Shown: piece after piece, positions 26,553 to 44,850 of the stretch
How positions within the stretch are numbered: position 1 is the first letter of the stretch
Layout of the letters: every line of letters begins with the position of its first letter
Source of the DNA: an uncultured Desulfobulbaceae bacterium
GTDB lineage: Bacteria > Desulfobacterota > Desulfobulbia > Desulfobulbales > BM004
Length of the DNA: 64,000 nucleotides
NCBI GenBank assembly: GCA_947259115.1
Contig: CAMYKS010000006.1
Coordinates: 88,079 to 152,078 of the forward strand
Direction of reading: 5' to 3'
Notes under the pieces: generated by a model
Databases searched by the model: none
Seen by the model: only the letters and a program-made list of their open reading frames with translations
What the model was told of the DNA's origin: nothing
Position numbers and translations under genes: made by a program

Positions 26553-26625
26553 GATCTGCTTGATTGCAAAAATGTAAGTTCATCAATACGTATCAAGAAT
26601 ATTTTATTATACCCAGGCATAAAAC

Positions 26626-27061: not shown

Positions 27062-27385
27062 TTATGTTTCTTTTTCCTTTTTTTTGTCAGTATCTATGGG
27101 GCATGGTTCTCCTGCCTCGGCAAAGGCGGCACAGGCCATGGTGCCCTTGACATCTATTTTGGTGTCATCTTCTTTCTTCTCACTTTTATCCAGCGGGCAT
27201 GGTTCTCCGGCTTCAGCAAAAGCGGTGCAGGCCATGGTGTCCTCCACAGACATTTTAGAGTCATCTGTTTTCTCTTTCTTTTCTTCAGCTTCATGGATTG
27301 GACATGGCTCGCCGGCCTCGGCAAAAGCACTGCAGGCCATGGTATCCACGACTTCTTTTTTGACTGATTTTTTTTCATCGTCCAT
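27062..27385 (-). CDS. Small charged protein with three TMACxAFAEAGEPCP repeats
   Basis: Three near-identical 15-aa cores separated by K/E/D linkers; GGAG RBS upstream. Confidence 0.85.
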   Translation of the reverse strand: MDDEKKSVKKEVVDTMACSAFAEAGEPCPIHEAEEKKEKTDDSKMSVEDTMACTAFAEAGEPCPLDKSEKKEDDTKIDVKGTMACAAFAEAGEPCPIDTDKKKEKET

Positions 27386-27859: not shown

Positions 27860-28276
27860 TTAAGGACCAGGGATATCTATCGGTAGAACAGCCGGCCCGA
27901 AGAGGATATTTCTTATTTTGCTGATCAGGGTGTCCACATCAAACGGTTTCTCCACAAGAAAATGATCGGTTTCAGAAATCCCTTGATTGGCAACTGAAGG
28001 AGCAATGTAGCCGGACATAAAAAGAACCCGAATCTCGGGATACAAAGCGGCAAACTGCCTGGCCAGGTCGAAGCCGCTCATTTTCGGCATCATGACGTCG
28101 GTGAGCAGCAGATCAATTTTTTCCTGTTTTTCGGCCGTAAGCAGAGCTCTCTCGGCGCTGGAAGCCGCAAGACACCGATAGCCATAAAAAGAAATTTGCT
28201 CTTCAGTAACCTTTAGAACAATGGGGTCATCATCTACTATGAGGACTGTTGCGGTTTCTTTTTTTTGCTTTTGCAT
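27860..28276 (-). CDS. Single-domain response regulator (receiver)
   Basis: VLIVDDD, DLLLTDVMMPKMSG, FMSGY and KPF motifs. Confidence 0.9.
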   Translation of the reverse strand: MQKQKKETATVLIVDDDPIVLKVTEEQISFYGYRCLAASSAERALLTAEKQEKIDLLLTDVMMPKMSGFDLARQFAALYPEIRVLFMSGYIAPSVANQGISETDHFLVEKPFDVDTLISKIRNILFGPAVLPIDIPGP

Positions 28277-28414: not shown

Positions 28415-28795
28415 TTAAAGGTTTTCTGTGCTTCCCCCCGCGTGGGAAGCTTTTTTTGACTGCTGGGCAATCTTCCTCATATCGCATATTACTTTTTTAT
28501 ATTGGGTAGATGTGCCAGGGTGAATCTGAGTCCTTCCATTGTATTCTTCCATTACATGCATTTCGTTTTCTATATATTTCAGGAGATTTGGGTCATATTT
28601 CATAAGGAGCATGAGCAGCAGGTCTTGGGTAATTTTTGCTTTAGACAGGCTTTGCGATAATGTTAATACTTTCTGGGTAAGATGCTGAACAACCTCCTGT
28701 TGCGAATCAATTATTCTCTTTAATGATTTTGAGTTATTATTCATGTTTGCGCCTTTATTGAAATCATGCCTCATAGGATGTCTCCCGATTCCCAC
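28415..28795 (-). CDS. Hypothetical protein (start possibly MNNNSK at 28744)
   Basis: ORF between the HD-GYP and receiver genes on the same strand; coiled-coil-like. Confidence 0.55.
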   Translation of the reverse strand: MGIGRHPMRHDFNKGANMNNNSKSLKRIIDSQQEVVQHLTQKVLTLSQSLSKAKITQDLLLMLLMKYDPNLLKYIENEMHVMEEYNGRTQIHPGTSTQYKKVICDMRKIAQQSKKASHAGGSTENL

Positions 28796-29520
28796 TTAGA
28801 AGAATATCGGGCTCCTGTTTCTCGAAACACACTTTGAAATGCTTGCACAATCTCAGGGTCAAACTGTCTGCCGGCATGTATATGAAGCTCAGCAAGGGCG
28901 TCTTCCTTTCTCCGCCTGGGCCGATAAGGCCGGTCAGTGCTTATGGAATCAAAGCTGTCCGCTACACAAATTATCCTTGCCGACAGGGGGATAACATCGC
29001 CTGTCAAGTTGTCCGGGTATCCTTTGCCGTCAATTCTTTCATGATGATGCTTGACTGCTGTTGATACACCATGCAGCTGCGAAATGGGCTTGATGATTTC
29101 GGCACCTCTGGCAGGGTGTTTCTTGATGAGTTCGAACTCCTCTTCAGTAATTCCGACTGGTTTATCCAGCAAAGCATCATAGGTTCCTGTCCTGCCTATG
29201 TCATGCATAAGTCCGGCAATTTTGAGTGTTTCAATGTCCTTGTTTGGAAGCCCCATTTTTTTGCCGATAGCAACGGCATAAAACGTCACCCGCTCAGAAT
29301 GCCCTTTTGTCCAGCGGGACCGTTTATCTGCAGCATGCGCAAGTACTCTGGCTTTACAGATATTTACAGCGGTATTTAATTGGGTCGGATCTCCATGGAC
29401 GACTTTACATACATCAGCCCATGGATCAAGGTGAGTCGGTGTCGTAATTTCAAGAGACCCTGGAGGGGTTACAGAGGGAACTGTTATAATTCTTTTTTTT
29501 TGCGTCTTTTTTCTTCCCAT
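28771..29520 (-). CDS. HD-GYP domain protein (putative c-di-GMP phosphodiesterase)
   Basis: TKGHSERV, MHDIG, HHERIDGKGYP, ARIICVADSFD and RPY motifs. Confidence 0.9.
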   Translation of the reverse strand: MGRKKTQKKRIITVPSVTPPGSLEITTPTHLDPWADVCKVVHGDPTQLNTAVNICKARVLAHAADKRSRWTKGHSERVTFYAVAIGKKMGLPNKDIETLKIAGLMHDIGRTGTYDALLDKPVGITEEEFELIKKHPARGAEIIKPISQLHGVSTAVKHHHERIDGKGYPDNLTGDVIPLSARIICVADSFDSISTDRPYRPRRRKEDALAELHIHAGRQFDPEIVQAFQSVFRETGARYSSKWESGDIL

Positions 29521-29621
29521 GTGCCACCCAGATGGATGCCGTATAAACAGGAAAATACCATAAGTCCGGTAATGACTATTCCCATTAACATTTGTTCAGG
29601 AGTTAAGGGTGCTAAATTCAT
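29484..29621 (-). CDS. 45-aa TM ORF missing from the ORF track; possibly the frameshifted N-terminus of the HD-GYP protein
   Basis: AGGAGG RBS; MNLAPLTPEQMLMGIVITGLMVFSCLYGIHLGGTWEEKRRKKKEL*; overlaps the HD-GYP start across an A9 tract. Confidence 0.65.
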   Translation of the reverse strand: MNLAPLTPEQMLMGIVITGLMVFSCLYGIHLGGTWEEKRRKKKEL

Positions 29622-29830: not shown

Positions 29831-29861
29831 TACGTATTTATATACGTATATATAATACGTA
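29831..29861 (-). promoter_or_regulatory. Triple TACGTA motif upstream of the HD-GYP unit
   Basis: TACGTA at 29831, 29843 and 29856 (13 then 12 nt spacing read on the minus strand). Confidence 0.6.
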
Positions 29862-30239: not shown

Positions 30240-31244
30240 TTACAAATAGGATTTCAGAAGGCTTTTTCTCAGGCTTGTTTTTTTACCCTGCAGGCCGAGC
30301 TTCTTTCTTATCTGAAAGCGGTGGGTTTCAACGGTCCTGGGAGATATGTCCAACACGGCGGCAATCTCTTTTGTGCTCAGCCCCTGTTTTGTGAGGTTTG
30401 CCACCTGTATTTCCTTGGCAGTGAGCTTGAAAAGAAGCAACAGCCGATTGTAAAGGAACGGTGAGGCAAGAGCACTGAGGTTCTGCTCTATAAGAGCAAA
30501 AGTGTTTTTTTGCTCGGCGCTGAGTTTTGATCCCTTCAGCCTGTCAATATACGGCAGTATCATTTTTTCGATTTTCCCTTTAAGTTCTACATCATACTGC
30601 GCCCTTTCCTCGTCCCTTCTTTTCAGCAGGACCTCAAGGGCGATATTGCTTTCCTGCATCGCCTGTGTCTTTTTATGCAGCTTTTCCGCGGTGATTTTAT
30701 GCTCTTTAATCTCACGCTCGAGGGAGGCGACCGTTTCTGATAGTTGGGCCGTTCTCTCCGCAACACGGTGTTCAAGCTTATCCCGTGCCTCCTGCAGATC
30801 GGCAAGCAGAAAGACGCGTTCCTTTTCCAATCGCTTCTGTTCAATGCTGCGCCTGGCCAGGCCGCATATTTCCACCATGTTCAGCGGTTTTTTCAGGAAA
30901 AAGTCTACACCCATCTTGTAGCAGCGTTGGATTTCCTCGTCTTCGCCATGACCAGTGATAACTACAAGTGTGAAGGGCGATTCACGGTTAATCTTAATTG
31001 CTTTCATAAAATCATAACCGTCCATAACCGGCATTCTCAAATCGAGAAAAATCAACTCAGGGGATTCTCCAGAAAATGCTATAAGCCCCTCTTTGCCGTT
31101 ATCGGCAAAAGAGAGTTCGTAGCCTTCGTTTGCCAAGGCCATTTTAATAGCCATTTGTACGGTTTGCTCATCATCCACAACCAGTACCTTCGGAACAGAA
31201 ACTGTTTGAATCATCTGTGTTGTTGCTTCATCTGACAAAGTCAT
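30240..31244 (-). CDS. Response regulator: receiver, coiled coil and LuxR-type HTH
   Basis: VLVVDDE, FLDLRMPVMDG; C-terminal LTAKEIQVANL..QGLSTKEIA..L.IS.RTVETHR..IRKKLG. Confidence 0.93.
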   Translation of the reverse strand: MTLSDEATTQMIQTVSVPKVLVVDDEQTVQMAIKMALANEGYELSFADNGKEGLIAFSGESPELIFLDLRMPVMDGYDFMKAIKINRESPFTLVVITGHGEDEEIQRCYKMGVDFFLKKPLNMVEICGLARRSIEQKRLEKERVFLLADLQEARDKLEHRVAERTAQLSETVASLEREIKEHKITAEKLHKKTQAMQESNIALEVLLKRRDEERAQYDVELKGKIEKMILPYIDRLKGSKLSAEQKNTFALIEQNLSALASPFLYNRLLLLFKLTAKEIQVANLTKQGLSTKEIAAVLDISPRTVETHRFQIRKKLGLQGKKTSLRKSLLKSYL

Positions 31245-31279: not shown

Positions 31280-33256
31280 TTAATGATGTACAGTAATCGG
31301 CAAAGAAATAATAAAGGTCGCTCCCCAGCCCTGCATCCGGCGATGCTCAATGGTACCGTTATGCTCTTTGATAATATTGCTGATAATGGCCAGACCAAGG
31401 CCTACTCCCTTTTCAGCTTTTTTCGTAGTAAAGAAGGGTTCAAATATGTCTTGCTCATTTGCCGTTTCGACGCCTGGACCGTTATCGGCAAAAGTAGTTT
31501 CCAGGAAATCCCCGGCTTTTTTCATGCTTACCCTGATCTTGCCGATTCCAACCTCTTCTATGGCATCAATGCTGTTTTGCAGCAGATTAATAAAAACCTG
31601 CTCAAGCTGCATTTTGTTACCGTAAATCTTTGGCAGATCATTCTCAATATCCCGGATTAAAACCTGGCTGCGAAGCCGCATTCTTTCGGCCATGAGGATC
31701 ATAGCATCATCAAGTACCTCGGGCAGGTACAAATCGGAACGCGACGCAATGTTTTTCCGGCCAAAATTGCGTAGGTGCTCGGTTATCAGCGTTATTCTTG
31801 CAACCTGCCGCAGAGCCTCCCTGAATTTATATCGTATTTCCTTCTCATCGAACCGTCCCTCATCAAGGTCCCGCAAAGCGGCTTGGTAGGCAATTTTAAC
31901 AAAGGTGAGCGGTTGGTTTATCTCATGGGCAATACCTGTGGCAATTTCACCGATTGATGCAAGTTTCGAAAGTGAAAGGGCCTTGAGCTCCATTTTCTTT
32001 CGTTCTTTTTCGGATTTTATTCTTTCGGTCACATTTCTGATAATGAGTTCGATTGCAGGCTCTCTTGCAAAGATTAATTTACTTGCTTTTATGTCAATGA
32101 TTATCCGGTTTCCGTCTTTGTGTAATACTTCAATCTGGTTTGGCGACCCGGGTGATTCCACAGATATCTTGTCCAGCCGTCTCCAGCCTGCCGGTTGCTG
32201 TTGAGCGGGTTGAAGCAGTTCCTCTGCATTGCGGCCGAGCAGTTCTTCACAGTTGTACCCGAAGATATTGCAAAAGGAATGATTGAGCCAGGTGAACTTT
32301 CCTTCTTGAATCATAGCCACGCCGTCAGCTATCCCTTCCGAGATGCTGCGGAATTTATTCTCACTTTCCCGTAAGGCAAGTTCAATTTTTTTGCGTGATT
32401 GTATCTCTCCCTCCAAATCCTCGACCTTCTTTTCCAGGTCGGTTTTCAAGGTATTAATTGTTTTGAAGGAGTTGTTCAGTGTTACGATCATGTTGTCGAA
32501 GGTGTCCGCCAACACCCCTACATCATCTTTGGCTTCCTTACTAATGCCATAATTCATGGAAATGTTTATCAGCCGCTTTAGTGGTTTAGTGACTTCCCGG
32601 ATTGTGAAATAGGTAGCTACACTGACAAGACCTAGAAAAAAAATCAGGAGTAGAACTCCTTTATTCAGCATTTCGTGGATAGCTTTTTGCAAATATGTTT
32701 TATTGAGGATCAAACCAACAAAACCGACGACATACATATCATTTGGGCTGGGAGGAGCATTAACTTCATCGAAATACATGTAATCAATGCTGAGTTGAGA
32801 AGATGCGGACTGTACCGGATGCCAGAACTCGATCCTCCTGGCATTATCAAGGTACAAGGTTTCCGGAGATATTTTTAACTGTTCAAAAAACTGCCCGGTA
32901 GCATTCTTTTTTTTGATGCAAATCTCCGTTTGATCCCAAGGCGGTTTAGTTTCTCTGTATAAAAGCTGCCCCTCAATATTATAGGCACAGACGCCGATTA
33001 CATCTTCAACACTGAGAGCTGCCCCGAGTGATTCCGAAATTTTATTTTTGTCTTCGGCGAACATGCCGAGCCGGACATTACTGGCTAAAACCGAGGTCAG
33101 CATTTTACCGTGTTTGATGTTCTCATTAGTAAGGTATTCTTTCTGGATTTGGAGGTAGAAGATACTGAGGGTGAGAGTTATAAGTAACATTACACCAGAC
33201 AGATGGGTGAAGATTTTGGCGCTGAAACTTTTGTTGATTATTCTGAAAAATATCAA
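31280..33256 (-). CDS. Membrane sensor histidine kinase (periplasmic domain, HAMP-like, PAS, HisKA, HATPase)
   Basis: Two TM segments; PAS; H-box GIAHEINQPL; N-box QVFINLLQNS; DNGPG, FEPFFTTK and GLGL. Confidence 0.95.
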   Translation of the reverse strand: MIFFRIINKSFSAKIFTHLSGVMLLITLTLSIFYLQIQKEYLTNENIKHGKMLTSVLASNVRLGMFAEDKNKISESLGAALSVEDVIGVCAYNIEGQLLYRETKPPWDQTEICIKKKNATGQFFEQLKISPETLYLDNARRIEFWHPVQSASSQLSIDYMYFDEVNAPPSPNDMYVVGFVGLILNKTYLQKAIHEMLNKGVLLLIFFLGLVSVATYFTIREVTKPLKRLINISMNYGISKEAKDDVGVLADTFDNMIVTLNNSFKTINTLKTDLEKKVEDLEGEIQSRKKIELALRESENKFRSISEGIADGVAMIQEGKFTWLNHSFCNIFGYNCEELLGRNAEELLQPAQQQPAGWRRLDKISVESPGSPNQIEVLHKDGNRIIIDIKASKLIFAREPAIELIIRNVTERIKSEKERKKMELKALSLSKLASIGEIATGIAHEINQPLTFVKIAYQAALRDLDEGRFDEKEIRYKFREALRQVARITLITEHLRNFGRKNIASRSDLYLPEVLDDAMILMAERMRLRSQVLIRDIENDLPKIYGNKMQLEQVFINLLQNSIDAIEEVGIGKIRVSMKKAGDFLETTFADNGPGVETANEQDIFEPFFTTKKAEKGVGLGLAIISNIIKEHNGTIEHRRMQGWGATFIISLPITVHH

Positions 33257-33313: not shown

Positions 33314-34285
33314 CTATTCATGACTATTCAATGCCATAATGTCTATCCCCAGTAACTTTGCTGCCAAGTGATTCACCCGGACATTAACTTTGCGGACCTG
33401 GACAGGCGAAAAATCGGATACTTTGGTGCCGTTCAGTATTTTAAGGGCCAGTTCCCCGGCCTGCTTTCCCATGTCGGTAGCATCAAAAGATACGGAAAGC
33501 GTCGCCCCCAGTTTTAAATATTTTTCTGCAAATGTGAGGACCGGTATCCTATTTTCCAGAGAGAAGAGAAAAATATAATCCAAAGTCTGCGGGGTGATCA
33601 CCGTTTGGTCCGGCAGCATCCAGTAACAATCAATTTTATCTTTCATCCTGGCGAGCCGACTGGGAATTTCCTTTGAAGTTTTTACGGGCAGAGCAACAAG
33701 ATGTATGCCAATCCGCTTGGCAAATTCTTCCGCTTCACGAACAAGGGTGCCAGTTCTGTCGGGATTGTAAAGCAGGCCTATACGCTTGATTTCCGGAATA
33801 AGGTGGATGAGGCTGGTAAGCTGCTGCTTTGCAGTCACGTTCATATTAATACCTGTAATGTTGTCTTGTGTCCCGGCTACCAATCCCGGGTTGGGGGCCA
33901 GGAGATATATAATCGGGATATCGCTGATACCCTTGACCAGCGCAAGGCTGCTGCTGCCAATCACCAAAAGGAGATCAGGATGCCGCCTGGCAATTTCCTG
34001 CTTCAGATGTTGGAGATTCTTTTCTGCGGAAAGGATACGTGTGGTAACGGTGTGGGGCTGAATAGTTTTCAGGCCGCGGGTTGAGATATCACGAAGTACT
34101 ATGGTTTCAAACCCCTGCAAGGCATTGTTGTAAACCTGCAACTGTGCACTCTGGACCACAAGGATATCGTCGGCCCAGGCATGGGTCTTTTGAAAGCTGA
34201 TGAAAATAAACAGGATCAGGAATATTTTCTTATTTGAAATTATTCTTAACATATGAGAGAGTAGTGATGCATTAAAGTAATGCAT
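33314..34285 (-). CDS. ABC-type periplasmic substrate-binding protein (ABC_sub_bind family); no permease nearby
   Basis: Signal peptide; PDLLLVIG, NITGI, KRIGLLYNP, WMLPD and MGKQAGELALKIL motifs; directly upstream of the kinase. Confidence 0.85.
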   Translation of the reverse strand: MHYFNASLLSHMLRIISNKKIFLILFIFISFQKTHAWADDILVVQSAQLQVYNNALQGFETIVLRDISTRGLKTIQPHTVTTRILSAEKNLQHLKQEIARRHPDLLLVIGSSSLALVKGISDIPIIYLLAPNPGLVAGTQDNITGINMNVTAKQQLTSLIHLIPEIKRIGLLYNPDRTGTLVREAEEFAKRIGIHLVALPVKTSKEIPSRLARMKDKIDCYWMLPDQTVITPQTLDYIFLFSLENRIPVLTFAEKYLKLGATLSVSFDATDMGKQAGELALKILNGTKVSDFSPVQVRKVNVRVNHLAAKLLGIDIMALNSHE

Positions 34286-34381
34286 GGCTTTTCACTTTAA
34301 AGGTTGGTTTTTGAAAGTTCAATAAGAAAGAAAAAAGAGGGATAAACATATTTGAAAGTGTTGATGTTTTACAAGGCCCAC

Positions 34382-34410
34382 CAAAATGCCCCGCTGCTTG
34401 CTGCGGGGAT
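34382..34410 (+). repeat. Palindromic short repeat, copy 2
   Basis: CAAAATGCCCCGCTGCTTGCTGCGGGGAT forms a hairpin. Confidence 0.65.
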
Positions 34411-34528
34411 AGGTCACATGAAAGGCGACAACTTTCTTTTACTTCTTAATTAACAAGAAATCCTTGATAAGGCTAATAAAAAAGGAAAAAAAACATGCAG
34501 TGATATATCTGCAACTTCCGGTTAAAAA

Positions 34529-36412
34529 ATGAAAAACGCCATGTTAAGTACTGCCAGTATCTTGCCCCTGTTTCTGGCTACAGTTTTATCTGTTCCGGCC
34601 TTGGGAGCTGAGCTGAGCCCGGCCGAGCTGGACGAGCTTTATCTTTATTTCAAGGATGACCAACTGGTGGAGGTCGAGACCCGCAGCCCGAAACCGCTCA
34701 ATCAGGTAGCTGAGAACGTCACGGTTATCACCGCCGAGGAGATTGAGGGCATGAACGCCCATACGGTAGCCGAGGTCTTGAACCGTGTGCCAGGCATTAT
34801 TATGGAGGGCAGCTACACTGATTTCGGCAGCTCTTCAACAATTTTTATTCAGGGTTCTGATTATGAACATGTCCTGGTGCTCCTTGACGGCATCCGCTGG
34901 GGTTATGTCAGTTTCGATTATGCGGAGACCAACACCATCCCGGTGCAGATCATCAAGCGTATCGAGATTATCAAGGGGGCTGCCTCATCCACCTGGGGCT
35001 CTTCGCTTGGGGGAGTGGTGAACATCATCACAAAGGATACCGGAAAGGACGCCATTCCGACCGGCTCCCTGTCCGGTTCCTATGGAGAGAACAGCACCAC
35101 CCATCTGCGGGGCGATGCGGCAGGCATGCTGGGCCGGCTTGGCTATTATATTTATGGAAGTTATCAGGAGTCGGACGGTATCGAGGACAGCCGTTTCTTC
35201 GACAACAAGAACTTTTACGTTAAGCTGCAGCTGGACCTGCCAAATCAAATTGACATTGGGGGCACCTTCGGTCACAACAGGCCGGAATATAAATATTACC
35301 ATATTCCAGCGTGGGATGAAGAAGGGGTGATCAATGATCGTGTCTATAACGCCACCGCCTTCTTTACAGCTCCATTGGGAAACACAGTCACACTTAACCT
35401 GAATGGTTACTGGTTTAAAGATACGTTCACCGATAAATGGCAGCCGATTTCAGCCGGAATTCCCATTAATAAAGTGCGCTACAAGGGTGAATCAACCGGC
35501 GCCAGCGGACGTCTTGTCTGGGACACCAATACACAAACCCTGGTCCTGGGTATGGACTATGAGCGGCGGGAGAACACCGAAACTGATCAGTTGACGTCCT
35601 ACACATCAAAAAGCCAACATGATGAAATTTGGGCTTTTTTTATCAATGATACCATACGGCTTAACCGGCTGACAGTAATCCCCGGATTGCGCTATGACCA
35701 TCTTTCCATTGCCGATGACAAGATCAGCCCCAGCCTCGGCCTGACTTATCAGGTGAATGATAAAACCCTGCTGCGGGGCAATGTTTCGCGCGGCTTCCGC
35801 AAACCCTATGCCTCGATAAAAACAGGTGATTCATTATTCTTTCCAGAGGCTAACCCGGACCTGGAGTCAGAAGAGATCACCTCATTTCAGGCCGGGGTGG
35901 AAAATAATGCCATTCCCTTTGTGAAGATCAAGGCAAACCTTTTCCTGCATCGGGCAGTAGATGTCTGGGTGAATGATCCTGACACCTTTATCTTTGTGAA
36001 CAACGGTGATTTTGACCGGCAGGGCGTTGAGTTGGAACTGCAGACCGCCTCGTTTCACAATTTTTCGGCCAGCGTCAATGGCCTGTACCTGCGCATGAAG
36101 CCGGATGATGAATCCAGTGCCACCCATTATGAGGCTAATATTCTTGTAAAGTATGACGATGGGACCTGGCGGGGGCAATTGTTCGGCCATAATGTCTGGC
36201 TCGGCGACGTCTCCCCGCCTGTTACCTGGGACGATGAAACAGGCACCTTTATCTGGGATTTAGTTCTCGGCAGGCGTTTTCATCTGCAGCAGGATACATC
36301 AGCCGAGCTCTTTGCCGAACTGCATAACGTCTTTGACGATGACCAGTATTTTCAATGGGTTTTTCCCAATGCCGGACGCTGGTTTGAAGCTGGCATCAGA
36401 TTTACATATTAA
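34529..36412 (+). CDS. TonB-dependent outer-membrane receptor
   Basis: Signal peptide; plug motifs VTVITAEEIE, EVLNRVPG and RIEIIKGAASSTWG..GGVVNIITK; GLRYD; C-terminal aromatic residue (GIRFTY). Confidence 0.95.
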   Translation: MKNAMLSTASILPLFLATVLSVPALGAELSPAELDELYLYFKDDQLVEVETRSPKPLNQVAENVTVITAEEIEGMNAHTVAEVLNRVPGIIMEGSYTDFGSSSTIFIQGSDYEHVLVLLDGIRWGYVSFDYAETNTIPVQIIKRIEIIKGAASSTWGSSLGGVVNIITKDTGKDAIPTGSLSGSYGENSTTHLRGDAAGMLGRLGYYIYGSYQESDGIEDSRFFDNKNFYVKLQLDLPNQIDIGGTFGHNRPEYKYYHIPAWDEEGVINDRVYNATAFFTAPLGNTVTLNLNGYWFKDTFTDKWQPISAGIPINKVRYKGESTGASGRLVWDTNTQTLVLGMDYERRENTETDQLTSYTSKSQHDEIWAFFINDTIRLNRLTVIPGLRYDHLSIADDKISPSLGLTYQVNDKTLLRGNVSRGFRKPYASIKTGDSLFFPEANPDLESEEITSFQAGVENNAIPFVKIKANLFLHRAVDVWVNDPDTFIFVNNGDFDRQGVELELQTASFHNFSASVNGLYLRMKPDDESSATHYEANILVKYDDGTWRGQLFGHNVWLGDVSPPVTWDDETGTFIWDLVLGRRFHLQQDTSAELFAELHNVFDDDQYFQWVFPNAGRWFEAGIRFTY

Positions 36413-36527
36413 TCCTCCTGATTAAAATATTTTAACCTGCACCTACCTTCTGTCAGATTGTTATGGAAATCTTTCGGTATACGGCATGAGTATAAAACGC
36501 TTGCTACGGGATTAGGTGTTCATGAAA

Positions 36528-36558
36528 TACGTAAAATAAATACGTAATTGCATACGTA
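36528..36558 (+). promoter_or_regulatory. Triple TACGTA motif upstream of the peptide precursor
   Basis: TACGTA at 36528, 36541 and 36553 (13 then 12 nt spacing). Confidence 0.6.
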
Positions 36559-36716
36559 TATAATCTAATTTTTGTTGTGCATCATTATCGATCATTCGTT
36601 AAATTTGAATTATGAAAAAAGTATTTTGCTTCGTTATATGCGCATGAAAAAACCGAAACAAATGAATAAGGACGGTGTGTTGCATCAACAATGAAATCTT
36701 ACTAAGGAGTTGTGAA

Positions 36717-36824
36717 ATGGAAAAGAAGAAACTCATTGTATTGGCTAAAGGAACTGACCCGAAGGAAATAGCTGTCAGAGCTGCATGTTGTAAGGTGGGA
36801 CCCAGAAGGTTTAAAGCCTGGTAA
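36717..36824 (+). CDS. 35-aa RiPP-like precursor (geopeptide-type) MEKKKLIVLAKGTDPKEIAVRAACCKVGPRRFKAW; missing from the ORF track
   Basis: AAGGAG RBS 7 nt upstream; IVL..G leader followed by a CC core; hairpin right after; radical SAM/SPASM gene about 1.8 kb downstream. Confidence 0.85.
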   Translation: MEKKKLIVLAKGTDPKEIAVRAACCKVGPRRFKAW

Positions 36825-36843
36825 AATCAAAACTTCTTATCTT

Positions 36844-36877
36844 GCACAAATGGGGGATGAAACTCCCCCATTTGTGC
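36844..36877 (+). terminator. Hairpin immediately after the precursor gene
   Basis: 13-bp stem: GCACAAATGGGGG / CCCCCATTTGTGC. Confidence 0.7.
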
Positions 36878-37053
36878 CCATGGAAGGCTTTTTCAGCTGC
36901 TGTTGATGATTTTGCCGGCCCGGACTGGAATGTTTCCAGCAGTTTTGGCCTAATTTACAGATGTTCTCAATCAAGATGGGCCAGATAATCAAGCCGGTTT
37001 GCCATTTTGCAAACAAATTTCGGACCGTTCATTGCCGGTCAATATCTCCAGGA

Positions 37054-38334
37054 CTATCTGCGATGTCCCATGATAAACCGTCGGAACTCTTGCTGCGTGC
37101 ATCCCCATATTACGACCAAGGACATTATTCCGCCGCTGAACAGGAATATGACGTTCAGGCGATGATTGAAATAGTCGGCTGCCACTCCCGCAATTCCCAT
37201 GGCAACAGGTGAAACACATAGCACAAGAGTTGTTAATACAGATAAGACCCTACCCCTCATTTCCTGGGGGATAGAGACCTGAAGTTTCGAATATATATAG
37301 TTACTGTTTAATCCAGTCAGAATCCCGTTGCCGGTCATAATGATCAAGGCGAGCCATGTCTGATGGACAAATGCCAGAGCACCATACCCTATACCCATGA
37401 AAAACATACATGCCATCATCAGCCAACCTATCCCATGGCCACGCTTGGGAAGGATGGCCGGCAACCAGTAGCCGATGGTGGTGCCCAGGGCCATACCTGC
37501 GAAGATATACCCGACCCAATCGAGCGTGGCATTCAGGAACCTGCCGTCCTTCACATAAAAGGGCATGAGGACAAAAAAAGGCTCAACAAAAAAATTGAGC
37601 GCTCCGTAGACCCAAATAACATTACGCAGCCCTCTATTCTTCAAAACAAAGGCAAACCCTTCTTTTGTATCTGTGAAAAGCTGCTTAACAGATTTTCGCC
37701 AATCGCCAAGCCCACCCTGCGGTTTCTGGATTGTCGTAATAAAACTCTCACTCGCAGCACTGAAAATAAAGGTTAAACTATCCAGGATAAATATTGCCGG
37801 CCCACCGAGCATACGGTATATGACAGCACCAACCCCTCTGCCCAGCAGATCCGCTACCTGTATCAGCACCATCTCCAGGGCATTGGCGGTTGCCACCTTA
37901 TCAAAGGGTACAAGATCAGGGGTAATCGATATCACTGCACTGCTGAAAAATATATTTGTTATCGCCATGCCGACGTAGACAACAAAAATCACACTTATTA
38001 TGAAACCCGGGTTTTTTGCATAAAACACAAGGGCAAGTGCCATTACCAGCGACAGCAGACCGGACACGATATCGCAAATTACAATGATTTTTTTTCTTGA
38101 AAACCTGTCAGCCAGAGCTCCACTTATCGGCCCGAGAATGATATTGGGGATTGCGGCGATCATCAGAAGAGTCCCCATCATGGTGGCGGAGTCAGTCGTC
38201 TCGACAATCCAGAGCATCAAGGCGATCCTGGCCAGACTCTCGCCAAACATGCTGACTGTTTGTCCCTGCCAAAGTAAGAGGTAGTTTTTATTTAATAAAC
38301 GGCTTGGTATCTGTTTCTGACCAGAAAATTGCAT
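37054..38334 (-). CDS. MFS transporter (macrolide/peptide efflux-like)
   Basis: LLWQGQTVSMFG, MFS motif A GALADRFSRKK and IPQEMRGRV; about 12 TM segments. Confidence 0.92.
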   Translation of the reverse strand: MQFSGQKQIPSRLLNKNYLLLWQGQTVSMFGESLARIALMLWIVETTDSATMMGTLLMIAAIPNIILGPISGALADRFSRKKIIVICDIVSGLLSLVMALALVFYAKNPGFIISVIFVVYVGMAITNIFFSSAVISITPDLVPFDKVATANALEMVLIQVADLLGRGVGAVIYRMLGGPAIFILDSLTFIFSAASESFITTIQKPQGGLGDWRKSVKQLFTDTKEGFAFVLKNRGLRNVIWVYGALNFFVEPFFVLMPFYVKDGRFLNATLDWVGYIFAGMALGTTIGYWLPAILPKRGHGIGWLMMACMFFMGIGYGALAFVHQTWLALIIMTGNGILTGLNSNYIYSKLQVSIPQEMRGRVLSVLTTLVLCVSPVAMGIAGVAADYFNHRLNVIFLFSGGIMSLVVIWGCTQQEFRRFIMGHRR

Positions 38335-38579
38335 TTGTACGATCGTATTGGTGAAAGATTAATAAACTTCACGGCGAAAATTGTAAAAAAGATACATACC
38401 ATCTAAATACTCGACACACATCTTTATGATGTTTTTCTTTTGTATTTACATAATCTATCTAAAGGACTTGGGCTGTTAATTGCATTTGCCTTTTTGAGTA
38501 AAGGAGTATAGTTTTTTATCTGAAGACTTCGTTTAATATACTGTTGGTCAACTTATACCTGTTGAGAAAAGATTACGCC

Positions 38580-39884
38580 ATGCTACTTTCCCATTACCTG
38601 AAAGTTTTTTCGTATCCTGCCGAACCGGGACATCTGCTTCTTTATTCTTTAAAAAACTCGGCCATGGTTTTATTGCCTGAGGAGGTGTATCGGCTTCTGC
38701 AGCAGGGTGAAATTCCGGATGAGTACTTAGGCACCCTGACTGAACTCGGCATTTTGGTGTCTGATCTGGTAGAGGAGCGCCAGGAGGTTCGGTCCATGCT
38801 GGCAGAGGTCAACCGGCTTGATCCAGGTTTGAATGTCTCAATTATTCTTGGTCTGGCCTGCAATTTTTCATGCGTCTACTGTTACGAGGGGTCATTAAAG
38901 GCCAACAGGGCCATGGCAGATGCGACCGTCGAGCAGCTAATTGTCTTTCTCAAAGAGCGCTACACAGCTCACACCAAACAGAATCTCACTCTCGATTTCT
39001 ATGGTGGCGAACCCTTGCTGTATACCAGGAGGATAAAAGATATTGCCGGTCCATTGAAGAATTTTGTTGAACAACAGGGTGGCAAATTCAATTTCTCAAT
39101 TGTGACAAATGGTTCTCTACTCACCCCTGAGACAGTCAAAGAATTGTTGCCGTTTGGTCTTTATGGTGTCAAGGTCACGGTGGATGGGCCACCAGACGAG
39201 CATAACCGGCTAAGACCATTTAAATCAGGACAACCGAGCTTTGATATCATTCTTGCCAATATAAGAGACTGCTGCGATTTAGTTAAAATCGCTTTCGGCG
39301 GCAACTTTACGAAGGAAAACTATGAAAGGATGCCGGAATTGTTGGATAGTATATCGGATCTCGGACTCAGTCCGGAAAAACTGAATGATGTCCAGTTTCA
39401 TCCGGTCATACAGACAACTGATCAATACACCAACCCGGAATTTACCGCCGGCTGTGTCTCAGTTAACGAGCTTTGGGTGGCGGATGCCTCTCTCATGATA
39501 CGGGAGGATGTGTTGCGGCGTGGTTATCGTACCCCAAAGCTGATCCCTTCACCCTGTATGATAGATATGAACGATGCCTTTGTCATCAATTTTGACGGAA
39601 GACTCTACAAATGCGTAGCCCTGATCGGCCATAGCAAGTATGCAGTGGGTGATGTATGGAAAGGATTCACCAGCTATAGGAAAACGTATCATTTAGACCA
39701 CTGGCAGCACCATAAAGAATGCCTTGATTGCGAATACCTGCCGCTATGTTTCGGTGGCTGCCGCTATGCGGAATTACAGCGCTCGGGCTCAATGAAAAAC
39801 GTGGACTGCATGCGGGGATACTGGGACGGCGTCCTGGAGAAAATAGTTCTGCAAGACGCATGTTTTCAGGAAAACACCAGGTGA
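38580..39884 (+). CDS. Radical SAM/SPASM peptide maturase (geopeptide maturase-like); ORF extends to 38544
   Basis: N-terminal extension that may be an RRE; CNFSCVYC; FYGGEPLL; SPASM C...YKC...CLDCEYLPLCFGGC...C. Confidence 0.9.
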   Translation: MLLSHYLKVFSYPAEPGHLLLYSLKNSAMVLLPEEVYRLLQQGEIPDEYLGTLTELGILVSDLVEERQEVRSMLAEVNRLDPGLNVSIILGLACNFSCVYCYEGSLKANRAMADATVEQLIVFLKERYTAHTKQNLTLDFYGGEPLLYTRRIKDIAGPLKNFVEQQGGKFNFSIVTNGSLLTPETVKELLPFGLYGVKVTVDGPPDEHNRLRPFKSGQPSFDIILANIRDCCDLVKIAFGGNFTKENYERMPELLDSISDLGLSPEKLNDVQFHPVIQTTDQYTNPEFTAGCVSVNELWVADASLMIREDVLRRGYRTPKLIPSPCMIDMNDAFVINFDGRLYKCVALIGHSKYAVGDVWKGFTSYRKTYHLDHWQHHKECLDCEYLPLCFGGCRYAELQRSGSMKNVDCMRGYWDGVLEKIVLQDACFQENTR

Positions 39885-40184
39885 ATTACTGATATATTGA
39901 GAATTTTGAAGTCGATTCGCTTTGGGGTGGGGTGAACGAAATTCTGTTATTTTTTCCCCTGTGCTATTTTTCTCATTAATAGCCAAAAGAAAAGGGGCAT
40001 TCCGTATAAATAATAATAAATCTTTTACCTATTTGATTCGGAATCCTTAAAAAAGTCCTGATTTAATATATAGATATTTTGACTCTGATAGAAGAGAAAT
40101 GCCCAAATGTCCAGCCTGACCTGACTTACTTTTTAAAAATAATAAAGACAATTGCTATAAAAAACAGGGCCGTCTCCGACCCTG

Positions 40185-40286
40185 CTTTAGCTTATTTGCA
40201 CAAATTTTTTTAAAAGCTGTTTTTTTGTGCTTGTCACGGGAGGACGTAAAGGGGCTGCAGTAAATTCTACAGTATCCGGGATATTA
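40185..40286 (+). repeat. 100-bp direct repeat, right copy
   Basis: Near-identical to 27473-27572. Confidence 0.93.
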
Positions 40287-40419
40287 AATTTCAACGGGAG
40301 TCTTTTCTTCCCACAAATTATGATGCTCTAATATCTCGAAGTCTCGTATACTCGCTTATCTGCGGATGACATCAACCTCATTGATAAATGTGGTTGATGT
40401 CATCTGGATTAAAAAAACA

Positions 40420-43400
40420 TTACTTACACTTCTCAGGAGCAGGTACGTTCGGGCACGTGGGGCGATAGGGTTCATCGCCTATATAATCCTGCCACTCCCT
40501 GCACGTCATATTGACTGTCAGGCGTGCGCAGGCAGAGGCAATGCGGTCGTCATCCTTCCATTTCCAGATACGTGCTGTTCTCAAAGACCTGGCAACAAGG
40601 TGTGTACCGTCAGGAGTAAAATCTACAGATGAGACAAATGAGGGAGCTTTCACACGGAACACCTCCTTGCCGGAGGATATTTCCCATACATGCACTGCCA
40701 GATCGTTGCTGGCAGTCGCCAGGTTCATTTCATTCTCACTGAAGGCAGTGGCAATGACGTAATCATCGTGGGAAAGACTTTTAACTATGCTGTTATCTAC
40801 CACATCCAGGACGATAACTTCTCTCCCTGCCACAGCAGCAAGATGTCTCCCCGACGGGCTCAAACTGATGGCACTTATCTCACTGCTGAGAGGAAGAGCT
40901 GCCACTTCTTTTCCTGTAGCCGTTTTCCATACATGGGCCCCTTTTTCAGTGACAGTGGCAAAAAGATGTCCATCGCCGGACATGGTAATGTTCACAAGTA
41001 TATCATTATGTACAATCGGCGCTATTTCTCTCCCCGTTTGCGTATCCATTATTGCCTGCCTTTCGCCCAGAGACAGGATGTACTGACTGTCAGGAGTAAA
41101 GAATGCCATGCTCCGCTCAAGGCTCCACGAATTCTTTTGCCCTCCCAGGGCTGTGATATGTAAAACTCTTGGCAGGAGATCATATTCATATGCCTGGTCG
41201 ACCATGAGAAACCGGCTGTTGCGACTGAAGGCGAGACTGACCTTCGGCATTCCCCATTCCCCCAACCTTTCACCTTCGGTAAGGTCTTCAAAATTCGTTA
41301 ATTGCAATCGCGTGATTTCTTTTCCACTTTCATGCTCGCGTACCAGGACAGACTCCATATCTGCCAGTGCCAGCAATGTATCGTCCATGGAGAGCCGGGC
41401 ATCCATTATTATTTTGTGATGGTTAACTGTTGAAACAGGCTTATCTCCTCCGGTATTCCAGATGGAAAGGGTCTTGTCAGTCGTCGTGATCAGTTTGCGT
41501 CCATTTTCTCTCAATGCAAAATGTTGTACCTGACTATCATGGCTGAAACGTCCTAACTCCTTTCCCGTGCTCAGGTTTAGCACACTGACTATAGAAGGCC
41601 CTTTGGCAACTGCTATAACGCTGCCATTCCCGTTGAAGGCCAGATCATACTGAAAGTCCCTGTCGCTTTCGCGGAAGCTCTCCGGTCCGGATATTTCAGA
41701 CACGACGACAGTATCATCTCCCCCAGTTGTTGCAAGAGAGTCTCCACCGGGACTGAAAGCAATGGCGAATATTGCGCCCTTATGGGTCTGCCTCTGAATT
41801 TCCCTGCCAGTATCAAGATCCCACACCCGGGCCGTATCTCTATATACTGAATCTACTATAGCCAGATAGTTTACCGCAGGAGCATATTCTGCAATACTGA
41901 TATTGTTTTCAATTGTAAACTGCCTTACTTCCTGAAATGGCTGGATCCGGTATATACGTGCCCGGTTACCTGTGGCAGTGACCAGATAGCGGCTGTCCCG
42001 GCTGAACGATACGATCGATCCACTTCGCTTTATATCTACTTTCCACAGTTCTTCTCCCGTCGTTACCCTGAGCATCCTGAGCTCTGCGCTGTTCATATCG
42101 GCAAGATACTGACCGTCCGGACTGAGAGGATAGGGATCTAACCCGTCCCAGAAGGTGACCTTCATTCTTCTCTCTTCTGCCCCGGTGTCAGCTTCCCTTA
42201 TCCTCACTGTCCCATCACCATGTGCGGTAACAAGGTGTTTCCCGTCAGTTGTAAAGCGGGCTTCAAGGGTAACGGTGCCGAGATCATGTCCGATCCTGAT
42301 TTCCCGCTCCCGGGAGGTCAGACTCCAGACATCAACTGCCGCTCCATAGGTAAAAGCAGCGGATTTCGAGCCCGGGCTAAAAGCTACAGAGTTAACGTCA
42401 CCGACTTTCTGTCCCATGAATTCCTCCGCACGTGCAAGATCCCATATCTTCCATCCCGCATCACTTCCCGATGCAAGATATGTCCCGTTATCACTGAAGC
42501 CGAGACTCCGTCCGGTACCACGAAGTATGAGGGGTCTGATTGTGACGGGCAGTAAATCAGTTCCGTTATGCAGGGCGTGAACCGCCTCAAGAGAAGGGGC
42601 ACGATGCATGGATTCAATGGCAAGGAGCACACTGCGCTGAAGAAGATTGGGCTGTTGTCTTCTCATCAGTTCAGACTGAGATGAAAGCTGGCGAGAGAGT
42701 GCCAGTGTGCGTCGCTTTTCGGCAACCATACGTTGCTGCCTCTCTCCCTCTCTGGCTTCAATTGCCTGTCTGCGCGACAGGAGAGCAAACATGAGTGCGG
42801 CAGAGAGGGCTATTATGATGCCGCTGACAATCCCAATAGTTATGTTTCGCCTGTGGGCATTCCTCTTCTTATCCCGTTGTTCAATGTCACTGCGACTGAG
42901 GTCATAAATATTGGCCAGGATCGTATACCACGGGCCATAGAATACGCCCTTGTTTACCTTATCCCTGTGTAGATCAAAACCGGCAAAGCTGGCAGCAAGG
43001 GGCATATCCATAACTTCTGTTAATGCTTCGGGGAATGCCTTTACCTCTTCCTGATCAGGCTGTGCCTCGTTGTTCGGAATGCCTGAAAGCATAACAGGGA
43101 TGATGTTGCTGGAGCCCCGCATCTTCGCAAATCGACGTACTTCATCATTTACGTATTCGCTTTTGCGGGCATGGGGGGAGCAGATGACTATCAGTTTTGC
43201 AGAGTCTTTCAGGTAATTCTCCAGAGACTGGTGGTATTCAACGCCGGTGAAGTCTGCTTCATCCCTGAAGACAGCGAGATTTCGCTGCGGCACATTCAGG
43301 CCTTTGGGAGGCTTATAGTTCTTGAGTGCCTTTTCAAGGGTACCGGCAAACTCCTGGTCCTTACGAGAATAGCTAATAAATACGTCGTTGCCATGGCCTG

Positions 43401-43422
43401 ACTCTTGAATATCAGGGATCAT
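40420..43422 (-). CDS. TIR-domain protein with one hydrophobic segment and WD40 beta-propeller repeats
   Basis: DVFISYSRKD...FRD...LIVICSP..RKSEYVNDEV TIR motifs; hydrophobic segment near aa 195-215; many FSPDG/RVWD-like repeats. Confidence 0.88.
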   Translation of the reverse strand: MIPDIQESGHGNDVFISYSRKDQEFAGTLEKALKNYKPPKGLNVPQRNLAVFRDEADFTGVEYHQSLENYLKDSAKLIVICSPHARKSEYVNDEVRRFAKMRGSSNIIPVMLSGIPNNEAQPDQEEVKAFPEALTEVMDMPLAASFAGFDLHRDKVNKGVFYGPWYTILANIYDLSRSDIEQRDKKRNAHRRNITIGIVSGIIIALSAALMFALLSRRQAIEAREGERQQRMVAEKRRTLALSRQLSSQSELMRRQQPNLLQRSVLLAIESMHRAPSLEAVHALHNGTDLLPVTIRPLILRGTGRSLGFSDNGTYLASGSDAGWKIWDLARAEEFMGQKVGDVNSVAFSPGSKSAAFTYGAAVDVWSLTSREREIRIGHDLGTVTLEARFTTDGKHLVTAHGDGTVRIREADTGAEERRMKVTFWDGLDPYPLSPDGQYLADMNSAELRMLRVTTGEELWKVDIKRSGSIVSFSRDSRYLVTATGNRARIYRIQPFQEVRQFTIENNISIAEYAPAVNYLAIVDSVYRDTARVWDLDTGREIQRQTHKGAIFAIAFSPGGDSLATTGGDDTVVVSEISGPESFRESDRDFQYDLAFNGNGSVIAVAKGPSIVSVLNLSTGKELGRFSHDSQVQHFALRENGRKLITTTDKTLSIWNTGGDKPVSTVNHHKIIMDARLSMDDTLLALADMESVLVREHESGKEITRLQLTNFEDLTEGERLGEWGMPKVSLAFSRNSRFLMVDQAYEYDLLPRVLHITALGGQKNSWSLERSMAFFTPDSQYILSLGERQAIMDTQTGREIAPIVHNDILVNITMSGDGHLFATVTEKGAHVWKTATGKEVAALPLSSEISAISLSPSGRHLAAVAGREVIVLDVVDNSIVKSLSHDDYVIATAFSENEMNLATASNDLAVHVWEISSGKEVFRVKAPSFVSSVDFTPDGTHLVARSLRTARIWKWKDDDRIASACARLTVNMTCREWQDYIGDEPYRPTCPNVPAPEKCK

Positions 43423-44079: not shown

Positions 44080-44850
44080 TCAACTTTCTATGTCGGACAG
44101 CAGCGTCTTTTGTACAGGTACACATAATCCATGGGGCTGTTGCACTAGAACATTTTGCTCCAATCCAAATATGGTTCTCAGGTTCACCACTTTATTGGGC
44201 GGTTGATTGGCGATCCCGTAGCACTTGAGATGGGGGAACACAGCTTCTGTACGGCGCAGTTTCTCCCGTTGTTGTTCCGGAGTTCCTTGCGGATCTTTGA
44301 TCGACGGAGCACACAAGGCCAGTGGCGGATTGACCACTACGTTTTGTTCGAGAGGAAACTGGTTGGTCCTCAAGGTCACTGGCGCGTGGTCGGGCTTCTC
44401 CCCTGAAATCATGTAGCAGGTATAGTACGGGCTGCGAGGTAGGCTATGTGTTGGATTGTTGGGAACGACCGCCTTGTTCGCAGGTGCGCAAACTGAGATT
44501 GCAGGACCGACATCGTGTACTTCCTCGCCGAACTGTTCGCTTTTCAGGCTAACTGCTGCATTCACCGGGCCTCCAGAAATCGAGTAGCACTTGAGGTACG
44601 TCGAATCGAGGGTGCCATGAGTATTTTTGATCACAGGGGCACACAGTGATAAAGGTGCACCGAGATTGGCTTGCTCACGGGTGAACTGGCTTTTAAAATC
44701 GACATTTACAGGAGGGGTAGGATTGACACCTCGGATCGAATAGCACTTATGATGGAGATCCGAAAGTAATGATGGAGTTGTTTTAGGGGCACAGGCTGCC
44801 AAACCTGCAAGGGCAACGATCATTATGAGGCATCCATATGTAGGTTTCAT
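44080..44850 (-). CDS. Lipoprotein with Cys-containing internal repeats
   Basis: Lipobox LAAC; four repeats of CYxI...QF...PxxLCxP; GGAGG RBS. Confidence 0.8.
   Translation of the reverse strand: MKPTYGCLIMIVALAGLAACAPKTTPSLLSDLHHKCYSIRGVNPTPPVNVDFKSQFTREQANLGAPLSLCAPVIKNTHGTLDSTYLKCYSISGGPVNAAVSLKSEQFGEEVHDVGPAISVCAPANKAVVPNNPTHSLPRSPYYTCYMISGEKPDHAPVTLRTNQFPLEQNVVVNPPLALCAPSIKDPQGTPEQQREKLRRTEAVFPHLKCYGIANQPPNKVVNLRTIFGLEQNVLVQQPHGLCVPVQKTLLSDIES

Follow-up and report, generated by a model that had tools for sequence, protein, structure and literature searches.

The 64,000-nt stretch of DNA analysed here, termed the window, comes from an uncultured Desulfobulbaceae bacterium and carries at positions 36717-36824 a small gene for a Cys-Cys peptide, which is flanked by genes for a radical SAM/SPASM peptide maturase, a transporter, an outer membrane receptor, a periplasmic binding protein, and a two-component system. 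The features on which the argument rests are, in order of position:

29831..29861, no strand assigned: second array of three TACGTA palindromes, beyond the response regulator gene
30240..31244, minus strand: response regulator with a receiver, a long linker, and a LuxR/GerE-type HTH
31280..33256, minus strand: sensor histidine kinase with two TM segments around an outer domain of ~160 aa, followed by PAS, HisKA, and HATPase
33314..34285, minus strand: periplasmic binding protein (PF04392) with a signal-peptide-like N-terminus, divergent from the receptor
34529..36412, plus strand: TonB-dependent receptor (Plug plus 22-strand-barrel type), upstream of the peptide and on the same strand
36528..36558, no strand assigned: three TACGTA palindromes at 12-13 bp spacing, then TATAAT at 36559-36564
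36704..36709, plus strand: Shine-Dalgarno AAGGAG, 7 nt 5' of the peptide ATG
36717..36824, plus strand: precursor peptide gene of 35 codons (stop included in the coordinates), assigned from its translation, family alignment, profile matches, and pN/pS; leader of about residues 1-23, invariant Cys24-Cys25, and the 10-residue tail KVGPRRFKAW
36844..36877, no strand assigned: 14-bp stem-loop, flanked by the convergent peptide and MFS genes
37054..38334, minus strand: MFS transporter (MFS_1/MFS_3 by Pfam/NCBIfam), with an orthologue at the same position in the same-genus genome G124
38580..39884, plus strand: radical SAM/SPASM peptide maturase of 434 aa with an N-terminal leader-binding (RRE-like) part, assigned from TIGR04280, with its start placed from homologues and a protein collection

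The plus strand at 36717-36824 translates to MEKKKLIVLAKGTDPKEIAVRAACCKVGPRRFKAW followed by a stop, exactly as written in the original prediction, which had described an open frame with a Cys-Cys core, a cationic tail, a ribosome-binding site, and a downstream hairpin. Each of these elements is borne out: the AAGGAG lies where a ribosome-binding site is expected, the tail after the Cys pair has a net charge of +4, and the hairpin on the 3' side of the gene folds with -35 kcal/mol in an 89-nt context (z -5.8), with 0 of 200 shuffles as good. A GGAGG-type ribosome-binding site is found at the same place in all 30 of the peptide homologues that were extracted, and these homologues start at the position of the ATG instead of at GTG 36675, where the longest mechanically listed frame opens. 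The hairpin recurs in G124, where A-T replaces one G-C pair in a compensatory change, and probably acts as a bidirectional terminator for the convergent peptide and MFS genes; no T-run stands directly 3' of the stem, a simple consensus terminator scan did not list it, and the numbers of promoter-like and terminator-like elements returned by the scan are not above those of shuffled sequences. Database searches returned no Pfam match for the peptide and, at E up to 1, no Rfam match within 34200-40500. A collection of 15 billion proteins contains the 434-aa enzyme read from ATG 38580 and lacks the exact peptide, an absence consistent with no gene having been called for the latter. Two readings of local motifs were set aside, namely a lipoprotein signal suggested by the 'A-x-x-A-C' context (the leader has no hydrophobic core and position -3 is not Leu) and a sigma-54 promoter picked out by eye, for which no GG element lies at the right distance.

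Conservation confirms that the frame is a real gene. The window peptide, used as a single-sequence query against 201 genomes of its order with an E limit of 1, matched mostly short open frames in 93 of them. Alignment of 30 extracted peptides gave the consensus M-x-x-K-K-x-I-V-L-x-K-G-x-x-x-K-x-V-A-A-x-x-A-C-C-K-x-G-P, in which C24 and C25 are the sole invariant residues. When a profile built from 28 of these peptides, all from other genera and thus without the window and its congener, was run against the 115,531 six-frame ORFs of the genome, the window ORF was the sole match (55.2 bits, E 3.1e-14) and the second-best ORF reached E 0.35. Compared with its counterpart in G124, the peptide gene shows pN 0.214 and pS 0.622. 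That the frame is open by chance, or is a decayed relic which the maturase no longer uses, therefore seems extremely improbable. Such a reading could draw on the convergent gene that separates peptide from enzyme and on the failure of the curated precursor model TIGR04229 to match; against it stand the profile match that is unique in the genome, the pN/pS values, the conserved ribosome-binding site and hairpin, the split layout that G124 has kept together with a closely similar MFS gene, and the supportive docking prediction described below.

A profile search of 1.84 billion representative proteins widened the family to 133 members at E up to 0.001, all of which (133/133) are 31-77 aa long and carry CC. 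The leader has several fixed points when counted back from the Cys pair, with Ala at -5 in 124 members, Val, Ile, or Leu at -6 in 122, Gly at -12 in 117, and Val or Ile at -16 in 131, while on the C-terminal side of CC only Pro at +4 (82/133) and Gly at +3 (64/133) are common. The tails range from 7 to 22 residues with net charges of -3 to +3. Nothing outside the Cys pair is invariant and the tail is the variable part of the peptide, in keeping with the earlier suggestion of a variable tail. The tail in the window, with its charge of +4 and its Phe and Trp, is an outlier, as F, W, or Y occurs in just 11 of the 133 tails; aromatic cross-links, which the original prediction had offered as one option, are therefore unlikely as the chemistry of the family.

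The cationic tail raises the question of a bacteriocin-like product, that is, a peptide that kills competitors, with the MFS protein serving export or immunity and the receptor and sensor serving some other purpose. Many radical-SAM-modified peptides are antibiotics, and in the Protein Atlas the nearest named clusters are bacteriocin and lantibiotic leaders, at 0.75-0.78 and hence below the 0.9 mark, so that they count as leads only; the best clusters overall are unnamed proteins of 30-31 aa at 0.87-0.88, likewise below the mark. We nevertheless consider an antimicrobial role improbable: the charge that suggests it is exceptional within the family, no immunity or ABC export genes are conserved in the cassette loci, and a producer with a constant, dedicated importer beside the gene would sensitise itself to its own product.

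The enzyme encoded downstream scores 525.8 bits on TIGR04280, the geopeptide radical SAM maturase model, described as a hypothetical equivalog with a cut-off of 400 bits, over model positions 1-424 of 428. In a TIGR04280 search of its own genome it is the only match over the cut-off (525.6 bits). The open frame runs from 38544 or 38580 to 39884, and homologues start at the ATG at 38580. The CX3CX2C motif (C94, C98, and C101) and a seven-Cys SPASM motif (C326, C345, C381, C384, C390, C394, and C410) show no exception among 30 homologues, at least 90% of which also have an eighth Cys, C292, and the protein scores 55.8 bits on the SPASM model TIGR04085 (cut-off 27). The next-best NCBIfam matches are CefB (168.2 bits), TIGR04463, Clo7bot, PapB (130.9), the SCIFF maturase (96.5), and QhpD (93.5), with scores all far below their own cut-offs, and the anaerobic sulfatase maturase profile gives 68 bits. 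By sequence, the solved structure closest to the enzyme is 5wgg (E 6.4e-16), and an anaerobic sulfatase maturase comes second. As a side observation, the maturase homologue at L055:2415-4499 (plus strand) forms one open frame of at least 695 aa that reaches the contig end, so that a C-terminal extension is fused to the usual ~430 aa.

The original prediction likened the peptide to geopeptide precursors and proposed a search with the TIGRFAM geopeptide models. The comparison came out differently for the two partners. The precursor model TIGR04229, which spans 22 positions with a cut-off of 30 bits, does not match the window peptide at E up to 10, nor does a six-frame search of the genome with this model return a match at the peptide locus; among the 30 homologues it gives weak matches over the same region in 3 (18.8, 13.5, and 10.6 bits), and it exceeds its cut-off in none of the 201 genomes of the order and none of 401 genomes of the phylum. 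Its best match is the 28-bit peptide of genome G499, MEIEVLNQGVEECQIVAGCCTGGANSARK, which resembles the window peptide in its short hydrophobic strand, Gly, hydrophobic-Ala stretch, CC, and short tail, and differs in having two fewer residues between the leader strand and CC. These results place the window peptide in a wider branch that has no name and relies on the same enzyme family, and, as TIGR04229 is too narrow for the order and the phylum, the profiles of 28-30 homologues were used in its stead. The assignment as a geopeptide-type precursor thus holds in part: the peptide fits the geopeptide build of leader strand, Gly, Cys-Cys pair, and short tail, the enzyme passes TIGR04280 and is linked to the peptide, and the predicted docking passes its controls, whereas the named precursor model stays unmatched. 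The geopeptide family is defined only in silico, as a database-listed system. In the literature searched, the names geopeptide, TIGR04229, and TIGR04280 do not occur and no paper on the system was found, and searches for radical SAM/SPASM enzymes with TonB, Geobacter, or histidine kinase likewise returned, to judge by titles and abstracts, no paper on this system.

Gene linkage joins this enzyme family to the peptide. TIGR04280 matches over the cut-off occur in 79 of the 201 genomes of the order, at 85 loci, and a frame resembling the window peptide lies upstream on the same strand at 69 of these; the median gap, measured by hand from the match coordinates, is 84 nt, and 60 gaps are no longer than 160 nt. 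Similar small ORFs near homologous maturases, whose absence would have spoken against the original prediction, are a regular feature upstream of the enzyme. The single-sequence query returned no peptide match at 16 of the 85 loci. The family profile, applied to 20 fetched loci, found a peptide in all 20, including one that the single-sequence query had missed and one with FC. In the opposite direction, 43 of 47 peptide matches with E up to 0.053 adjoin such an enzyme, and the four exceptions comprise a contig end, a pair split across two contigs, an enzyme gene that is only partial, and a genome without an enzyme match. At one locus, L137 (G061:C2), the minus-strand peptide gene upstream of the maturase encodes ...AKSKAFCPPGAPSG, in which Phe-Cys replaces the Cys-Cys of all the other members; a single Cys may suffice, or this copy may be decaying.

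The locus in the window is a variant member of this database-listed peptide-maturase system. Its tail is both cationic and aromatic, and, unlike in the NCBIfam geopeptide system, an MFS gene stands between precursor and maturase. This gene has the opposite orientation, and 1.76 kb separates the peptide from the maturase, which is encoded downstream on the same strand, an arrangement that the original prediction did not mention. Gaps above 500 nt occur at only four loci, two of which are the window (1759 nt) and G124 (1617 nt), and both of these gaps hold a convergent 426-aa MFS gene, with 79% identity between the two. Within the genus, the peptide-maturase pair was found in 1 of 12 other genomes, several of which are incomplete. 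The closest NCBIfam matches of the MFS protein are an H+ antiporter subfamily and EntS (92.6 bits, cut-off 324), and it also matches PF05977; we regard it as a candidate exporter. An MFS gene is present at 1 of 20 loci sampled in the order and 2 of 9 loci sampled in other taxa, and the idea of an MFS pump as a universal part of the cassette was rejected on these counts. A separate arrangement was seen at L127 (G129:C1, 7684-12223), which has two tandem peptide-plus-maturase pairs and, between these on the opposite strand, an MFS gene whose product is just 26% identical to the MFS protein of the window.

Structure prediction favours binding of the leader by the maturase. The complex was modelled from both family alignments with three 4Fe-4S clusters and SAM, in three runs alongside three controls, and the peptide-maturase pair obtained a docking score of 0.84 (median of the three runs) against 0.02 for the best control. 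In the calibration of this score, 116 of 157 solved complexes attained the mark, as did 2 of 215 mismatched pairs; the present modelling differs from that calibration in its own alignments and its riding ligands. The three runs share 60% or more of their contacts, with a partner pLDDT of 66 or higher. In the predicted complex, leader residues 6-12 pair with enzyme residues 27-33, and peptide residues 24, 25, 28, and 30 touch enzyme residues 319-333, 345-346, and 394, contacts that sit beside the SPASM cluster ligands C326, C345, and C394. Solved leader-enzyme complexes exist for related SPASM enzymes, and the docking pass may partly reflect likeness to these. Together with the TIGR04280 match and the gene linkage, the docking lends support to the earlier proposal that the SPASM enzyme is the maturase of the peptide.

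The entries 5wgg and 5why, which we take to be CteB, the thermocellin sactipeptide maturase with a bound leader peptide, offer the closest structural parallel, in that the predicted leader joins the N-terminal domain as an added strand and the Cys residues lie beside SPASM cluster ligands. The parallel has limits: only the radical SAM core aligns with CteB (window maturase residues 88-275), and the window substrate offers two adjacent Cys with no conserved acceptor. PapB, the SCIFF maturase, QhpD, and CefB resemble the window maturase in acting on Cys-containing peptides; their substrates hold several Cys with Asp, Glu, or Thr partners, which the window family does not have. As a model for the first step, the leader, composed of a hydrophobic strand (LIVL), a Gly, and then K-E-I-A, would dock as a beta-strand on the N-terminal domain of the enzyme, which would then act on Cys24 and/or Cys25, most likely by joining Cys sulfur to a carbon of another residue in a thioether. 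Such chemistry is the most likely by analogy, as it fits the nearest characterised enzymes.

It is also conceivable, though decidedly unlikely in our estimation, that the same pair carries out a different reaction, for example conversion of Cys to formylglycine, epimerisation, or formation of a C-C link, or that it makes an intracellular cofactor precursor. The second-best solved relative is, after all, an anaerobic sulfatase maturase, which is a SPASM enzyme that oxidises Cys; the residues that follow CC include no conserved acceptor; and C292, given its retention in the homologues, means that both auxiliary clusters could be fully ligated. The ranking of profile relatives points the other way, with thioether-forming or Cys-rich-peptide maturases (CefB at 168, PapB at 131, and SCIFF at 96.5) ahead of the sulfatase maturase at 68, and, where an intracellular product is concerned, the constant outer membrane receptor argues for an extracellular stage.

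This receptor is the most regular companion of the pair. Surrounding genes were compared in 20 loci from 20 genomes of the order, one of them cut by a contig end for the receptor, and in a second set of nine, which by their record titles come from other taxa (Desulfobulbales, Desulfobacteraceae, Nitrospirae, and others). In the order, all 19 assessable loci have a TonB-dependent receptor ahead of the pair, and an orthologue lies directly upstream of peptide and enzyme in all nine of the others. The binding protein is present in 7 of the 9 loci from other taxa, and in 17 of the 20 loci of the order it occurs together with a kinase that has a homologous sensor part (residues 3-300). Orthologues of the response-regulator receiver, at 50-57% identity, were found at three loci (L140, L141, and L142). 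No ABC permease or ATPase is encoded in the 64-kb window, which renders the binding protein transporter-less, and no protease or conserved exporter belongs to the cassette across the 9 and 20 loci. The receptor gene is duplicated at L139 (G103:C27, 9618-14142), where two tandem TonB-dependent receptor genes stand upstream of one peptide-maturase pair.

As the peptide-enzyme pair travels with an outer membrane importer and a kinase, the cell probably makes, takes up again, and senses its own peptide. Building on the gene and its conservation, the enzyme family, the gene linkage, and the predicted docking, we infer a pathway of modification, leader removal, export, re-import, sensing, and regulation at the TACGTA arrays. 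After modification, the product would probably be trimmed and leave the cell, here possibly through the MFS pump whose gene lies between those of peptide and maturase. Cleavage of the leader before the Cys pair would leave 12 residues, too large for porins, so that return would have to proceed via the TonB-dependent receptor, a candidate importer that would carry the mature peptide back across the outer membrane. In the periplasm, the transporter-less binding protein would capture the peptide and present it to the histidine kinase, which, with its LuxR-type regulator, would read the signal. A Cys-cross-linked peptide that is made by the maturase, exported, re-imported, and sensed by the cassette is the account we favour by a modest degree of confidence. 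One point against it is the position of precursor and enzyme, which lie 1.76 kb apart in separate transcription units.

The main rival starts from the same genes. Under a metallophore model, the Cys-Cys peptide would be secreted, bind metal, and be re-imported through the TonB-dependent receptor in the manner of methanobactin, with the kinase merely reporting its presence. In the methanobactin system, a precursor and its modifying enzymes are accompanied by the TonB-dependent importer MbnT, the binding protein MbnE, and an exporter, and the likeness to a Cys-bearing ribosomal peptide beside a dedicated TonB receptor, a binding protein, and here an exporter candidate is plain. Two invariant adjacent thiols, the company of a TonB receptor (19/19) and a periplasmic binding protein (17/20), the place of EntS, an enterobactin exporter, among the nearest NCBIfam matches of the MFS protein (below cut-off, alongside the PF05977 match), and tungsten/molybdenum-cofactor genes nearby in the window all speak for metal binding. 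We nonetheless judge this model unlikely. The modifying enzyme in the window is of the radical SAM/SPASM type; the window encodes no inner membrane ABC permease or ATPase and so, unlike the methanobactin system, no inner membrane importer, and it holds no reductase or metal-regulator gene either. The binding protein is paired with a histidine kinase, an arrangement kept in 17 of 20 loci that suits sensing better than nutrition, a hypervariable tail is unexpected in a chelator, and the thiols would be consumed if the enzyme makes thioethers.

Sensing of a re-imported peptide has precedents for its separate parts. Binding-protein-dependent kinases are exemplified by LuxP-LuxQ and TorT-TorS, and polysaccharide loci of Bacteroides combine TonB import with subsequent periplasmic sensing. 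The cassette resembles these systems in that a binding protein gene without a transporter lies beside the gene for a kinase with a periplasmic domain, in the company of a TonB importer, and differs from them in that the proposed ligand would be a modified peptide of the cell's own making. In clostridia, ranthipeptides have been linked with quorum sensing. To our knowledge, modified-peptide signals are well documented in Gram-positive bacteria and hardly known in bacteria with an outer membrane. If the proposed pathway is correct, this widespread cassette would show how outer membrane cells use peptides that are too large for porins.

New at this locus, besides the layout split by the MFS gene, are the two triple TACGTA arrays. 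The first, at 36528-36558, lies 158 nt 5' of the peptide ATG, and with the TATAAT that follows it may represent an operator and the -10 box of a promoter that belongs to the peptide gene itself. The second, at 29831-29861, lies upstream of a 45-codon membrane ORF (29484-29621, minus strand) and an HD-GYP-type gene (28771-29520, minus strand). The 45-codon ORF encodes a hydrophobic segment, has a good ribosome-binding site, and overlaps the start of the HD-GYP-type gene, whose product scores 122.9 bits on HD_5 and 143.9 bits on the phosphodiesterase part of NF053512. Triple TACGTA arrays occur at exactly two places in the 3.99-Mb genome, and a reversed control pattern occurs at 0; the related word ATACGTA appears 14 times in the window against 1.98 expected. 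Beyond the arrays themselves, the two regions are not significantly alike, as 137 of 300 shuffles score as well. A single palindromic ATACGTAT with the same core as the arrays was also noted at 26586-26593, 34 nt upstream of the start of an aldehyde:ferredoxin oxidoreductase gene.

The arrays have a narrow distribution. None was found upstream of the peptides in 20 relatives, and no TACGTA doublets were found in 5 other genomes, among them G124, which is 72% complete and whose contig ends 26 nt before the peptide gene; the arrays were accordingly rejected as a conserved operator of the family. Within the window, a regulator of the cassette may bind both. It is tempting to extend the favoured pathway to a full circuit, in which sensing of the peptide would drive the LuxR-type regulator onto both arrays and so produce positive feedback on the precursor and expression of an HD-GYP output operon, with the peptide tail acting as a mark of strain identity. 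We advance this extended circuit only tentatively and consider it doubtful as a whole. Through its split layout with an exporter candidate and its two unique arrays, the locus opens the proposed circuit to testing, and, with one precursor, one maturase, a possible exporter, and two putative operators, it offers a practical starting point. The homologue profile, for its part, detects precursors overlooked by the curated model and by gene callers.

Three further genes in the window merit mention. Directly downstream of the maturase, on the other strand, a gene at 40420-43422 (minus strand) encodes a 1000-aa protein with TIR_2 at the N-terminus and several WD40 propellers, which looks like a defence or signalling protein outside the conserved cassette. 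At 27062-27385 (minus strand), between the aldehyde:ferredoxin oxidoreductase gene (24969-26552) and a receiver-only regulator (27860-28276), lies a gene for a 107-aa protein composed of three repeats of ~35 aa, in each of which a sequence similar to TMAC[ST]AFAEAGEPCP recurs; no Pfam family covers the protein, and a weak CglC-like match (22 bits) is all that was found. Finally, the gene at 44080-44850 (minus strand) encodes a protein of 256 aa whose N-terminus resembles that of a lipoprotein and whose internal repeats end in 'LKCY..' and 'LC.P' motifs; the DUF7450 repeat gives 36.9 bits.
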